This document shows, piece after piece, positions 1,471-13,189 of a DNA stretch of 33,744 nt. This stretch comes from a virus (taxonomy: Duplodnaviria > Heunggongvirae > Uroviricota > Caudoviricetes), in IMG/VR virus record IMGVR_UViG_2778261543_000005. One strand, given 5' to 3'. Numbering within the stretch: the first letter of the stretch is position 1; each line of letters opens with the position of its first letter. A program made the position numbers and the translations under genes. The notes under the pieces are model-generated. The model was not told where the DNA came from. It did not search any database and saw nothing but the letters and a program-made list of their open reading frames with translations.

Positions 1471-2361
1471 ATGGAAGACGCGCTTTACGCTTTTAATTAC
1501 ACACAGAACCGGGACAAGTTATTTGCTAACTTGATTAGCATCATTGATGGAATCATTGCAGATGGAGTTGTCCGTGAAGAGGAGGTTCTTTACTTAGATA
1601 CATGGTTACTTGAAGCAAAGCAGATTATCAATAATGGAGTTATAAAAAGTCTATCTGCTCGGGTGTCGGATATTCTTGCGGATGGAATAATCACATCAGA
1701 AGAACGTGATGACCTTAAAAATAGCCTTCTCCAAATACAGAGGGAAATTCTTGATATCCCTGAAATTGATTTTTACTCCAAGGATGTAGATGTCCATTTA
1801 CTTAATGGACTATGTAAAGGATTAATTGCTGATCGGAACTTAACTCAAGAAGAAATAAGATATCTTAATTGGTGGCTTGAGCAAAATGGAGCTTTGAAGA
1901 ACAACTACCCAGGAAAAAAACTTTATGCACTTGTAAAGGAAATTCTTAAAGATGGTGTTATTACTGAAGATGAGAGTTTAACTCTACATAAGGCATTAGT
2001 AGACTTCACAGGATGTGACTTGGAAAGTGGGGTGGTGGATGGTTTGGCGACCAGGCTGCCTATTGATGTAGGGGCTTCGATAGAGTTAGAGGGTAAAACC
2101 TATTGTCTTACAGGCACTTTTGTTGCAGGAAAGAGAGCCGTAGTTGAAAATTTGATTAAAAATGCTGGTGGGAACATCAGTAGTGGAATTACTCAAAAGT
2201 TGGATTTTTTAGTAATTGGGACGCTTTCCTCCCGTGATTGGAAATTCTCTAGTCACGGAAGGAAGATCGAAAAGGCTATATCTTATAGGGATGATAATGG
2301 TGCAAAACTTAAAATTATTTCTGAAGAAATGCTTTTCGATGCATTACCAAGTTCGCGATGA
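1471..2361 (+). CDS. Cargo protein with N-terminal TerB-like repeated (A/K)DG-x-I/V...EE...L motifs and a C-terminal BRCT-like domain
   Basis: ATG at 1471 preceded by aaaaaggagg. Four repeats (IADGVVREEEV, LADGIITSEER, IADRNLTQEEI, LKDGVITEDES). C-terminus (KTYCLTGTF...IKNAGG...LDFLVIGT) resembles the BRCT domain of NAD-dependent ligases. Domain calls are by eye. Confidence 0.6.
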   Translation: MEDALYAFNYTQNRDKLFANLISIIDGIIADGVVREEEVLYLDTWLLEAKQIINNGVIKSLSARVSDILADGIITSEERDDLKNSLLQIQREILDIPEIDFYSKDVDVHLLNGLCKGLIADRNLTQEEIRYLNWWLEQNGALKNNYPGKKLYALVKEILKDGVITEDESLTLHKALVDFTGCDLESGVVDGLATRLPIDVGASIELEGKTYCLTGTFVAGKRAVVENLIKNAGGNISSGITQKLDFLVIGTLSSRDWKFSSHGRKIEKAISYRDDNGAKLKIISEEMLFDALPSSR

Positions 2362-3030
2362 CCAGAATACCCTACCTATAACATGAATTCTGGCTCGTCT
2401 ATCTTCAAAGGTGAGTATTTCATCTGGGTACTCATCTTTGTTGAAGCTTCTAAGAATCAAGCCACCGTCAGGTAAGTTGATAAGTATTTTAACCCTTAGC
2501 AATACACCATCTCGTACGGCATAAAGATCGCCATCACGAATAGGAACGGTTTGAGAAATATCAACGGCAACAAGATCTCCATTATTGAGAACCGGTAATA
2601 AACTGTTCCCCCATATTTGTACGATCTTGGCATTAGATGCACATACGCCAGATTTTCTCAAATCTGCTCTTCTTAACGGAAACCAGTCAATAGCTGATTC
2701 AACTATTTCAGCCAGACATCCGTTACCTGCCGATAACTCGACATCTAAAACAGGAATGTTTACGAAAATATCGGGGTCTAATGCGGTGCTTTCTGCTTCT
2801 TTTACAACAAGATCAGGTATGGATGCGTTGTCTTCAATACCAAGTTGTAACCACTTTTGTGATACACCTAAAACTTTTGCAATTTCTTTAATTTTGCGCG
2901 GTTGTAGAGTTTCGCCATTCTCTATTTTGGCTACAGATTGTTGTGAAAGTCCAATTTTTTCAGCTAGTTGAGCTTGGCTCATGCCAGCTTTCTCTCTACC
3001 TATCTTTAATCGTTCTGCCAGTGTTTTCAC
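2344..3030 (-). CDS. Phage repressor, CI/LexA-like (N-terminal XRE-type HTH + C-terminal S24 peptidase domain)
   Basis: GTG start at 3030 with GAGGG upstream. N-terminus MSQAQLAEKIGLSQQSVAKIENGE is a typical HTH; C-terminal half matches the S24 self-cleaving fold. Divergent from a Cro-like gene. Confidence 0.85.
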   Translation of the reverse strand: MKTLAERLKIGREKAGMSQAQLAEKIGLSQQSVAKIENGETLQPRKIKEIAKVLGVSQKWLQLGIEDNASIPDLVVKEAESTALDPDIFVNIPVLDVELSAGNGCLAEIVESAIDWFPLRRADLRKSGVCASNAKIVQIWGNSLLPVLNNGDLVAVDISQTVPIRDGDLYAVRDGVLLRVKILINLPDGGLILRSFNKDEYPDEILTFEDRRARIHVIGRVFWSSRTW

Positions 3031-8707: not shown

Positions 8708-10039
8708 TTACTGGATGAATGACATTTGATTAATATATTTTATCAATAACTCTCTGGGTGTAGTACTCCAAAAATTTATGTGTTCATAATCAGTATAAAC
8801 ATTTGTGAATTTTTTAAGTTCTTCATCACTTTTAGGGGCAAATCGCTCATTAAGAGTAATACTGTCTTTAATTATTCCGAAGAATACAATGGATATTTCA
8901 GGGATTTGCGATCTTCTCTCATAAGAATAAGGTATTTCTTTTATGTTAAGCAGGTCTGCTAAATAAGATATAGATTCAGCGGTAATTTCTTGTTTTAGTT
9001 TTTCCTTGTTACCAAAGCAATGTATGAAGGCAGCTACGACAAAGATCATATTTATTAAAGGATCACTGCTTTTGTTCTCATCGTCGTTTAACAGTTGAAA
9101 AATGTTAAGATTGCGTGAAAATGTTTGTGTTTCACGTAATGATAAGTTGGTTCGTTGAATTAAATCACGGATAAAGTAACCTGATAATCTATTGATTTTA
9201 TTCAATAACCTTGTTTTTTCTACAAGGTAATCCCAATATATAACAGAGGCTTTACATACGTTGTGACCATTTATCAAACATGTATCTGGAAGCGTGATGG
9301 TATATTTTATAAACTTGTCAAGATACTTTTGTGAGTTAATGCTATAACCATAAATATGATTTATAGATGCTTTTAATTGTTCTGTGTTTGTAACTAAAAT
9401 AAAAAAGACATTATTGATGTCAAAAATGTGTTTTATTGTTTCAATGACATTTGTTGAAAAACTCGGCTTACATCGGTCTAATTCATCAATTATAATTACG
9501 ATTTTTTGATTTTTTGATATGCTTTCGATGCAGGATTTAAGTGAATTTATGTTTTTCTCTGAGTCCATATGGTCTTCAAGCAAATTTTCAATAGTCCCAT
9601 CTATTGCTGCATTGCTTGCTTTCTTCATCGCATCTTGGAATTCTTCGGCAACTTCACTAGCCTCCTGTCGTAAAAACCAACCTGCACCAGCTTTTAGTAC
9701 CGTTTTTAAACCAAAGCGAATTGCAGGAAGAGATCTCTTAATGAAGTGTTGTTTTTCTTCCTCAGGCAAAATGCTGGCAATTGCAGAGGTTATGAGAAGT
9801 AATGGAGATTCTGCATGATCCCCTTTAAAGGCATCAATATAAACAACTTTAGATTCAGTTTCTTGCTCAATAATGAGATTTTTCAGTTTGATACTAAATT
9901 CTGTTTTCCCTGTTCCCCATGCGCCGTCTATTACCAGTGGTGAAATGTCTGCCTCTGGTTTTAGCAACTTGATGATATTTTCAGCGATGTTTCTTCGTTG
10001 GAACTCGTCACGTTCAGTGAAAGATAGTGTATCTAACAT
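8708..10039 (-). CDS. KAP-family P-loop NTPase (443 aa), AT-rich cargo gene inserted antisense between Q and the late region
   Basis: Walker A VIDGAWGTGKTEF near the N-terminus, Walker B IVIIIDELDRC, overall KAP NTPase-like organisation; visibly AT-rich; opposite orientation to flanking phage genes. Confidence 0.8.
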   Translation of the reverse strand: MLDTLSFTERDEFQRRNIAENIIKLLKPEADISPLVIDGAWGTGKTEFSIKLKNLIIEQETESKVVYIDAFKGDHAESPLLLITSAIASILPEEEKQHFIKRSLPAIRFGLKTVLKAGAGWFLRQEASEVAEEFQDAMKKASNAAIDGTIENLLEDHMDSEKNINSLKSCIESISKNQKIVIIIDELDRCKPSFSTNVIETIKHIFDINNVFFILVTNTEQLKASINHIYGYSINSQKYLDKFIKYTITLPDTCLINGHNVCKASVIYWDYLVEKTRLLNKINRLSGYFIRDLIQRTNLSLRETQTFSRNLNIFQLLNDDENKSSDPLINMIFVVAAFIHCFGNKEKLKQEITAESISYLADLLNIKEIPYSYERRSQIPEISIVFFGIIKDSITLNERFAPKSDEELKKFTNVYTDYEHINFWSTTPRELLIKYINQMSFIQ

Positions 10040-11519: not shown

Positions 11520-11661
11520 TACTCCTGTACCGTTTATACCTAATCCGCTGACGTATGGTGCCAGTCTGGAGCTGAATGTGAGTCTGTTGTCTGCGCTGGC
11601 TAACTGCAATCGGGATAAAGCTGATATTCGTAAAATAGATGCAGAGAGAACTAACCATTAA
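11404..11661 (+). CDS. Rz1-like outer-membrane lipoprotein spanin (overlapped architecture)
   Basis: ATG at 11404 in the +1 frame of Rz; signal peptide with lipobox LLTGC; Pro-rich mature part. The track ORF 11176-11661 is the long open frame containing it. Confidence 0.6.
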   Translation: MMIVLHVLCLLPLLTGCGSTRTVYVSVPVAPLPPSLTSDTPVPFIPNPLTYGASLELNVSLLSALANCNRDKADIRKIDAERTNH

Positions 11662-11682
11662 GCAATAAAATTGTCAAATTAA

Positions 11683-12309
11683 TCAGTTGTCAAATGAATA
11701 TACGTTAAAGGTATATGTCGACATAATTTCACCAAGTACCTCAATACATACACTTTTTTTATGAAAATTACTGGGAAATGAACTTAGCTCCTCAAGACAT
11801 TGCACATAAGTGCTGATATCACTTGCATCACGTTCAAGGAATTTCACTTGACCAAAAGAAGGAGTTTTAATCTTGGTTCTTTGCTGGATTATATGGATAA
11901 AGTGTGTAGTTGGTGAAACTATTACTCTTGAAATATCGGAAATGATGTCTTCTTGAACTTGCCGATAAAGTAAATCCTTTGGGTAATGGTGTTTTATCTC
12001 GATGGTTGCAACATTGCCATTATGTTCAGACGTTAATATCGACTGGTTATAAAGTGATATGTCAACAGCGCCGATACCGAGTTTTGGATGCTCACTTAAA
12101 GCAGTTAGTGTGCTGATTTGATTGAGTATAACAACTAACTCATCACGTATTTGTGTTTCATGTTTGCGATTGTAGAAGTAGCCATTCAGTTCATTTAACT
12201 TTTTATGCATCCTATCGTGACTAATTGCTTCGATCAGTAAATCCTGAATCATACTTTTCTCTAGGTAATCCGAACGGTTGTAAGTGACAGTATTGTGCTG
12301 GCATGTCAT
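11683..12309 (-). CDS. Hypothetical protein (208 aa), second gene of an AT-rich two-gene cargo operon; possible PD-(D/E)xK-like motif
   Basis: AT-rich, opposite strand to the phage core. GIGAVDISLY...(19 aa)...ATIEIKHH is compatible with a D...ExK nuclease core (speculative). Start uncertain; alternative Met 20 at 12252. Confidence 0.55.
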   Translation of the reverse strand: MTCQHNTVTYNRSDYLEKSMIQDLLIEAISHDRMHKKLNELNGYFYNRKHETQIRDELVVILNQISTLTALSEHPKLGIGAVDISLYNQSILTSEHNGNVATIEIKHHYPKDLLYRQVQEDIISDISRVIVSPTTHFIHIIQQRTKIKTPSFGQVKFLERDASDISTYVQCLEELSSFPSNFHKKSVCIEVLGEIMSTYTFNVYSFDN

Positions 12310-12352
12310 TAATATGTAAAGGTATTGTGAATGCCAGAAAGATAACGAAGTA

Positions 12353-12688
12353 TCATCGATAGAAAAACTTTACAGCCCACTCGTAAACAGCTTTGTAAAT
12401 CGGTTCATGGTAAATACTATCGATACTATTCAGATGTGCGATCATCGCCTCCACAGTTGTAGTGGTTGTTTCTAATATTTCGATTATTGCAGGGCGGTCA
12501 TCATCTTCATCGAAGTATTCGAACAGCAGTACAGGTTTACCATGCAATTCAGCATCTGAGACTCTAAGGTTACAACTACCGCTCAACTCAAAGTGAATTT
12601 TGTAATTACCTTCTACAGAATGGCCTACGGGGAAAAAGTATAGGGTGTCATCTTTGTTCAAAAGCCATTCCCATTCATAACTATTCAT
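12353..12688 (-). CDS. Hypothetical acidic protein (111 aa), first gene of the two-gene cargo operon
   Basis: ATG at 12688 with AGGAG 7 nt upstream on the minus strand; acidic stretch EYFDEDDDRPAIIEILE. Track ORF 12353-12706 trimmed to the RBS-supported start. Confidence 0.55.
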   Translation of the reverse strand: MNSYEWEWLLNKDDTLYFFPVGHSVEGNYKIHFELSGSCNLRVSDAELHGKPVLLFEYFDEDDDRPAIIEILETTTTTVEAMIAHLNSIDSIYHEPIYKAVYEWAVKFFYR

Positions 12689-12838
12689 TTGTGAACTCCT
12701 GTTCATTGAGTTTCAACAACTATCAACTACATCCAGCGAAGCATAAAAGATCGTTTATGGCAAAACCGGAATGGAGTGCGATTCGATTCTGAGAAGGGTG
12801 CCACGTATCGTACGCGAACCATCCAAGAGGATTATGCA

Positions 12839-13189
12839 ATGCCCCTACGAACCCCAAAAGCCTGCCGCGTTCGCGGCTGCCGTAATACCACTACAGACCC
12901 GTCAGGCTACTGCGAAAGCCACAAAAACGAAGGCTGGAAACAATACAAGCCGGGGCAATCTCGTCATCAGCGCGGTTATGGTTCGAAGTGGGATGTTATC
13001 CGCGCGCGTGTGCTGAAGCGTGACAAAGGTTTATGTCAATTATGTCTGCATGCTGGTGTGGTGGGTGAGGCGAAAACCGTTGACCACATCATTCCCAAAG
13101 CGCATGGCGGCACCGATGCCGACAGTAACCTGCAGAGTCTGTGCTGGCCGTGTCATAAGGCGAAGACGGCCCGTGAACGGCTGAAGTAA
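12839..13189 (+). CDS. HNH endonuclease (packaging-associated)
   Basis: ATG at 12839 after aagagg; Cys-rich zinc motifs (CRVRGCRN, CQLC...H, CWPCH) and DHIIPKAHGG HNH core; directly upstream of the terminase genes. Confidence 0.8.
   Translation: MPLRTPKACRVRGCRNTTTDPSGYCESHKNEGWKQYKPGQSRHQRGYGSKWDVIRARVLKRDKGLCQLCLHAGVVGEAKTVDHIIPKAHGGTDADSNLQSLCWPCHKAKTARERLK

Follow-up and report, generated by a model that had tools for sequence, protein, structure and literature searches.

An AT-rich insert between the lysis and packaging genes of an Escherichia coli prophage is best explained as two separate cargo genes in tandem, one of them for a predicted PD-(D/E)xK nuclease

The stretch of DNA analysed here (the window; 33,744 nucleotides of the Caudoviricetes record IMGVR_UViG_2778261543_000005) is an Escherichia coli prophage, and between its lysis cassette and its packaging genes lies an insert of 1.2 kb with two co-oriented genes, one for a 189-amino-acid (aa) protein with a predicted PD-(D/E)xK nuclease fold and one for a small acidic protein of 111 aa. 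The insert is evident from comparison with related phages, its origin is mosaic, and the two genes are independent of each other. The best explanation, which we hold to be somewhat more probable than all others taken together, is that the insert consists of two independently mobile single-gene morons that recombination brought into tandem in a single E. coli prophage lineage, and that the gene of the 111-aa protein is a separate cargo gene and not the obligate partner of the nuclease. As to function, our best guess, predicted from the sequence, is that the larger protein would be a defence nuclease expressed by the lysogen that attacks incoming DNA.

Positions 11600-12800 of the window are 100% identical to the chromosome of E. 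coli UPEC_U013, where the prophage that carries the matching stretch adjoins tRNA-Thr/proA and has the gene order lambda-type holin, endolysin, Rz/Rz1, HNH, P27-type small terminase, large terminase, HK97-type head genes and contractile tail. The two genes are flanked by Rz1/LysC, which ends at 11661, and by the HNH gene (12839-13189), followed by the small and large terminase genes; the GC content of 11662-12775 is 0.37, against 0.50 for the window. Thus, an AT-rich, minus-strand, two-gene stretch between Rz1 and HNH/terminase is present just as the initial annotation had described it. In a relative in which the slot is empty (L031), 26 bp separate lysC from HNH, and the match between the two phages stops in the last Rz1 codons and restarts exactly at the HNH start codon; because homology breaks off and resumes at these points, we set the approximate limits of the insert there (Table 1). 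A query running from endolysin to terminase found 3337 E. coli records that share some part of it, 75 of which have one place covering at least 80%. Other prophages with the same flanks hold unrelated hypothetical genes or the gene of a DUF6979 protein in the slot, and the annotation rows of relatives place iss, KilA-N or YfbU genes there. The proposal that this is a cargo slot like that of lambda bor is therefore borne out, since relatives hold iss, other genes or nothing at this place. Two traits of a moron are present, namely insertion between genes that are adjacent in relatives and a base composition distinct from the surroundings. The products of bor and of iss, which we take to be a homologue of bor, are outer-membrane lipoproteins that confer serum resistance. 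The window genes share with them the slot between Rz1 and the packaging genes, the orientation against the late operon and the AT-rich insert, but neither window protein has a signal peptide or any similarity to bor/iss.

The independence of the two genes is seen in their distribution across genomes. The small gene occurs alone, antisense and adjoining the first packaging gene, in phages with a small terminase (TerS) of the Terminase_2 type (L011-L014 and L016-L018); it is also alone in L035-L038, together with a DUF2280 small terminase and a metallopeptidase gene, and at a non-phage site in Pectobacterium (L015). It is thus found without the nuclease gene in at least four phage backgrounds and at one non-phage site. 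The nuclease gene, in turn, has either no neighbour of this kind or only unrelated ones in L002-L010, L019 and L021. In Klebsiella electrica it is intact, has no upstream partner and lies 41 bp from a divergent Sf6-type terminase gene; in Pectobacterium it has a non-phage location and no partner; in Yersinia it has no co-oriented upstream gene; and it is preceded by an unrelated 72-75-aa open reading frame (ORF) in Enterobacter hormaechei and by an unrelated 103-aa ORF in Proteus, the N-terminus of which reads like a signal peptide. In E. coli, 79-80 of 5426 complete genomes have both genes, at 95% identity or more and always with identical flanks, and this linkage reads as the mark of one recent prophage lineage. 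Neither gene was found in 50,697 sequenced phage records by megablast and tblastn. The simplest account of these arrangements is that the two genes are alternative occupants of one hot spot that appear to have been placed in tandem.

This distribution bears directly on the initial annotation, which had taken the two genes for a toxin/immunity or small defence pair and had proposed their co-occurrence in other genomes as a check. Because the genes do not co-occur across genomes, membership in a pair fails: outside E. coli the two were not found together, and each occurs without the other across genera and phage types. A pair in which a PD-(D/E)xK toxin is held in check by the small acidic protein, as an abortive-infection or addiction module, would account for the co-orientation of the genes, the 100 bp between them with no predicted terminator, the acidity of the small protein, the constant company of the two genes in E. 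coli, and the presence of another small acidic ORF (75 aa, pI 4.65) upstream of the nuclease gene in Enterobacter. Nevertheless, we consider it decidedly unlikely, since the K. electrica nuclease retains all catalytic residues and its gene lies too close to the terminase gene for a partner to fit between them, neither the Enterobacter nor the Proteus upstream ORF is related to the 111-aa protein, and the company kept in E. coli comes down to the one recent lineage.

Some neighbouring arrangements deserve mention in their own right. In Enterobacter hormaechei prophages (L002-L006, 5683-5910) the mildly acidic 72-75-aa ORF (pI 4.65) is conserved between the terminase and nuclease genes, and this arrangement is kept in phages with different large terminases and portals; the ORF was considered as a diverged form of the 111-aa protein and rejected, as the sequences are unrelated. 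In the P22-like prophage of K. electrica (L009, 6773-7650) the slot continues, beyond the nuclease gene and in its orientation, with additional unrelated cargo, namely a 56-aa ORF and a gene for a ClpP-family protease. The plasmid collection gave one match, positions 17-755 of NZ_CP148394.1. This 19-kb E. coli record, which is non-mobilizable and was assembled from a single cell, has the small gene and a truncated nuclease gene at its extremity and stfP (tail fibre) annotated at the matching place; it probably derives from a prophage and not from a plasmid.

A trace of the recombination is found at the edge of the insert, upstream of the small gene. Positions 12757-12774 read ATGGCAAAACCGGAATGG (MAKPEW), followed by nonsense, and the intact small terminase of the Terminase_2 / Sf6_terminase type begins MAKPDWG... 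in L011 and L009, where it is divergent from the cargo genes and abuts them. The window phage's own small terminase is of the P27 type, unlike that of the stub. Since the stub belongs to a foreign TerS while the phage has its own P27-type gene, we read it as a recombination scar and the module as an import from a different type of phage. The same facts could be read as the work of a selfish, free-standing homing endonuclease that cuts the empty slot by the small-terminase gene of competing phages, whereupon repair would copy the gene together with its flanks. PD-(D/E)xK homing endonucleases exist, the nuclease gene recurs at the same place abutting the packaging genes in phages with different terminases, and the travelling of a terminase 5' stub with the cassette resembles flank co-conversion. 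However, the small gene, which encodes no nuclease, behaves alike in its position and carries the clear TerS stub, so that hot-spot recombination suffices without homing. Moreover, relatives of the nuclease are found in non-phage chromosomal sites, in type I restriction-modification (R-M) islands and on plasmids, the two genes are missing from the phage records searched, and they are oriented against late transcription. Homing is therefore a highly improbable explanation, and recombination at a shared hot spot remains the preferred one.

The extent of each gene could be read from the sequence and from homologues. The minus-strand ORFs are 11683-12309 (208 aa) and 12353-12706 (117 aa, or 111 aa counted from the ATG at 12688). 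This ATG is the preferred start of the small gene, because AGGAG (12700-12696) lies 7 nt upstream of it and phrog_14397 aligns end to end with residues 1-111; the earlier description of a 111-aa acidic protein with an AGGAG ribosome-binding site is thus confirmed, with a calculated isoelectric point (pI) of 4.56. The length of 208 aa that had been given for the larger protein needs correction. All 15 aligned nuclease homologues begin MI(Q/H/N/R)xLL, which corresponds to Met20 of the ORF, the phrog_12494 match starts at residue 20 of the 208-aa ORF, and RefSeq annotates 570 bp. These three points speak against the upstream start, and the gene most likely starts at its second Met and would encode 189 aa; the intergenic gap is therefore 100 bp and not 43 bp. 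This spacer aligns with the region preceding the nuclease gene in Enterobacter, Klebsiella and Pectobacterium and is decayed in the window, where a 10-bp deletion takes out an extended -10 element, TGTATAAT, that is conserved in the other genera. In E. coli both genes may share a transcript. Nonsynonymous divergence (dN) between genera is about 0.1-0.5 and synonymous divergence (dS) is saturated, and dN/dS is 0.05-0.15 in the four comparisons for which it is calculable. Such low values indicate purifying selection; thus, both genes are real and constrained.

The assignment of the larger protein to the PD-(D/E)xK nucleases, with which the initial annotation had found a motif spacing compatible, is supported by the predicted structure and, decisively, by conservation. 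The AlphaFold2 model of the 189-aa protein, built with 16 homologues, has a pLDDT of 84.6 and a pTM of 0.85, and its elements follow in the order helix 29-46, strands 50-53, 65-68 and 80-89, helix 97-107, strand 117-127 and a small C-terminal helix/hairpin, so that the restriction-endonuclease-like core (helix, three strands, helix, strand) is present in the model. In the alignment of 33 sequences, which reaches down to 18% identity, K30, E32, D64, E85 and K87 are the sole invariant columns. E32 lies in helix 1, D64 at the start of strand 2 and E85-x-K87 in strand 3, which is the canonical E...D...ExK arrangement, and E32, D64, E85 and K87 are the predicted catalytic or metal-binding residues, to which the invariant K30 is added. 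The residues VD...EIK that had been picked out earlier are indeed among the invariant ones of the family, but the spacing of 19 aa did not hold, as D64 is followed by 20 residues and then by E85-I-K87 in the numbering of the 189-aa protein. The larger protein thus has, as judged from model and alignment, a PD-(D/E)xK nuclease fold with conserved active-site residues. The closest folds to the model are those of type IIP endonucleases from the EcoRV-like branch, R.SwaI (5tgq), BglI (1dmu) and EcoRV (1eo3), although the identity is 12-17%, and searches of PDB sequences with single-family and broad profiles gave no match to the nuclease.

The family to which this protein belongs is small. An exhaustive search of 1.84 billion representatives with a hidden Markov model (HMM) found only 42 relatives, and among 5.8 billion proteins the narrow families comprise 27 clusters for the nuclease and 15 for the small protein, with all named sources in Enterobacterales. 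A profile search of genome contigs with the narrower alignment gave only four species-representative loci. Named families are reached by single distant relatives, one of which matches HSDR_N (PF04313) at E 1.4e-4, while another, the full-length homologue P0084, scores 24.1 bits against PDDEXK_4 (PF14281), with a cut-off of 22.3, across the D and ExK region. In contrast, the window protein matches neither of these families, 31 of the 33 aligned relatives have no Pfam family either, and the family is effectively unnamed. The nuclease corresponds to phrog_12494 in PHROGs, listed as "unknown function", and both window proteins are therefore already catalogued, in PHROGs under this label and in RefSeq as hypothetical proteins. 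Taken together, the model points to a member of a small, unnamed PD-(D/E)xK family of the EcoRV/SwaI structural type with predicted nuclease activity.

Some distant relatives of the nuclease are found among defence genes. The full-length relative P0105 (hhalign probability 99.7%) is encoded in a metagenomic type I R-M operon (L023, 755-11938) that an embedded island interrupts; the genes follow as hsdM, hsdS, SMODS/AGS_C, SLATT_4, a 228-aa gene, P0105, AbiEi, AbiEii and hsdR. In L030 a relative lies 3 bp upstream of hsdR, another distant relative has a HipA module and a helicase in its vicinity, and small Rep3 plasmids carry still others. Some distant relatives of about 284-316 aa (P0091-P0095 and P0098; L024, 1-857) carry a C-terminal DUF6508 domain, of which literature searches found no mention; in an Acinetobacter baumannii assembly, such a DUF6508-fused relative is on a 9.7-kb contig that also has a Rep3 replication gene.

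The position, orientation and composition of the insert, together with the associations with defence genes, lead us to infer a nuclease that is expressed in the lysogen and directed against incoming DNA. Like lambda bor, the nuclease gene would be transcribed in the prophage and in the direction opposite to the late operon, and its product would cut incoming foreign DNA from another phage or a plasmid. One gene would thus provide a restriction-like or abortive defence that works with no methyltransferase next to it and no immunity protein. Self DNA may be spared by host methylation, by specificity for modified DNA or by trigger-dependent activation, and the 111-aa protein would have its own role on the side of the lysogen, separate from that of the nuclease. 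A constitutively lethal toxin is not a fitting description, because the nuclease gene is tolerated without a constant neighbour. Comparable in kind are the single-gene prophage defences BstA, HK97 gp15 and P22 SieA and PADLOC candidates such as PDC-S20, which are likewise prophage cargo in hot spots; however, the window proteins have no sequence relation to any PADLOC 2.0 model.

Several observations weigh against this proposal and, in part, against the stacking of two unconnected genes. The window nuclease matches no family in Pfam or NCBIfam, Foldseek searches of PDB and BFVD with it gave no match at E <= 0.001, and PADLOC 2.0 has no model that matches either protein at E <= 1. The association with defence islands comes from two or three distant relatives, and expression, nuclease activity and phage resistance are all inferred. 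With regard to transcription, the nuclease gene may rely on read-through from the small gene, because the extended -10 element is deleted in the window, and a consensus scan, with two promoter-like sites and not one terminator, did not exceed the expectation from shuffled sequence. No positive evidence supports any role for the 111-aa protein, and a lineage-specific functional link between the two genes in E. coli, where they always co-occur, is still conceivable. Literature searches for the RefSeq accessions and PHROG identifiers, including the DefensePredictor supplements, found no mention of either.

The absence of a methyltransferase is relevant to the kind of nuclease that may be involved. 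None is adjacent in the window or in L002-L010, L019 and L021, nor in the contexts of distant relatives that were examined, and a scan of ten early-region ORFs of the window gave no methyltransferase domain. Because no methyltransferase is adjacent or early, and because the phage backgrounds differ, this is not a classical R-M system; unlike the operons of type IIP R-M systems, the window nuclease is solo prophage cargo. An orphan type II-like enzyme protected by a methyltransferase elsewhere (Dam/Dcm or phage-borne), or a type IV-like cutter of modified DNA, would be a more specific version of the explanation preferred here and does not contradict it. The likeness of the fold to the type IIP enzymes SwaI, BglI and EcoRV, the typical size of 189 aa, the toleration of the gene without an adjacent partner in several genera and the restriction of close homologues to Enterobacterales, which are Dam-positive, all fit such an enzyme. 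Nevertheless, we regard this version as unlikely, since the contexts examined and the early genes of the window provide no methyltransferase, the differing phage backgrounds exclude a constant phage methyltransferase as partner, Acinetobacter-type Rep3 plasmids and unnamed metagenomic hosts also harbour distant relatives, and specificity cannot be read from the sequence. We speculate further that the protein could be a restriction system reduced to one gene, a solitary EcoRV/SwaI-like endonuclease with no dedicated methyltransferase, with housekeeping methylation by the host (e.g. by Dam) protecting self DNA or a phage-specific state of DNA being what the enzyme recognises, and that the 111-aa protein could have been recruited as a lineage-specific modulator of it in E. 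coli; this more elaborate form is rather unlikely.

It is also conceivable that both genes are passengers without any role in defence, the larger one encoding a repair or recombination nuclease or a decaying remnant and the smaller one acting on host physiology in the manner of bor/iss. In keeping with this, neither protein matches known defence models, the same slot holds iss and assorted hypothetical genes in relatives, and the promoter element of the nuclease gene looks damaged in the window. However, purifying selection on both genes is strong, undamaged ORFs are kept in about 75 E. coli genomes and in other genera, no catalytic residue varies, and distant relatives are embedded among defence genes, so we judge a passenger status to be fairly improbable and retain the defence nuclease as our best guess.

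The small protein has 20 acidic residues (D/E) against 8 basic ones (K/R), including the acidic run FEYFDEDDDRPA (FDEDDD), and by reading of the sequence it has neither a signal peptide nor a membrane segment. Its AlphaFold2 model, of low confidence (pLDDT 53), has a beta-rich N-terminal half and two C-terminal helices. The protein corresponds to phrog_14397 (E 1e-77, "unknown function") and to RefSeq WP_001089763.1, the named sources of its 15 homologue clusters are Escherichia and Pectobacterium, and it had no match in Pfam, NCBIfam or PADLOC and only noise against PDB. It shares its acidity with DNA mimics of the Ocr and ArdA type, but no family profile matches; Ocr is all-helical, and the tentatively predicted beta-rich half of the 111-aa protein differs from it. 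Because this gene is consistently solo, antisense and beside the packaging genes of several phage types, we regard it as an independent moron. That its product is a small inhibitor of a competing phage or of a host system is only a guess.

Other AT-rich stretches of the window also carry genes of interest. A second AT-rich cargo slot (GC content 0.35), which neighbours the first and lies between the Q antiterminator and holin, holds a minus-strand gene (8708-10039) for a KAP-family P-loop NTPase of 443 aa that matches the PADLOC candidate PDC-S20 at E 4.5e-177 and PifA and QatA more weakly. The prophage thus has a further defence candidate, which we count in favour of the proposed role of the nuclease; in the otherwise near-identical UPEC_U013 prophage this slot holds a different hypothetical gene and a DNA methyltransferase. 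In another AT-rich stretch, a plus-strand gene (1441-2361) encodes a protein of 306 aa that has a BRCT domain at its C-terminus (E 1.4e-6) and matches PADLOC PDC-S48 weakly (E 2.7e-7). The gene overlaps the minus-strand cI-like repressor gene (2344-3030) at the latter's end and may be a further cargo or defence gene that the prophage expresses.

Table 1. Features of the insert and its vicinity in the window
Feature	Position	Strand	Basis and remarks
Whole variable insert (two stacked morons, best explanation)	11640-12838		Last Rz1/LysC codons to HNH start codon; alignment to L031 and composition
Nuclease gene (189-aa predicted PD-(D/E)xK protein)	11683-12252	-	ORF runs to 12309 (208 aa); Met20 likely start
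Intergenic spacer, 100 bp	12253-12352	-	Promoter-like TTTACA-17-CACAAT at 12320-12292; decayed copy of the upstream region from other genera
Gene of the 111-aa acidic protein	12353-12688	-	ORF; phrog_14397; RefSeq WP_001089763.1
AGGAG ribosome-binding site	12696-12700	-	7 nt before the small-gene ATG; read from sequence
Small-terminase remnant, first six codons (MAKPEW)	12757-12774	+	Alignment with L011, L013 and L016 (upstream of the small gene) and L009 (upstream of the nuclease gene); translations of TerS starts

The locus illustrates clearly how cargo builds up in a prophage: two alternative "alleles" of one hot spot between lysis and terminase genes, which came from other phage types, were put in tandem, and six codons of a foreign terminase gene remain as the scar of the recombination. 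It is also a warning that co-oriented, adjacent cargo genes should not be read as a functional pair when their co-occurrence has been checked in no more than one species. If the larger protein is indeed an active defence nuclease, it would add to the anti-phage repertoire a compact single-gene family that is missing from PADLOC 2.0, and one would then have to ask what keeps a restriction-like enzyme from cutting self DNA when it lacks both a methyltransferase and an immunity partner.

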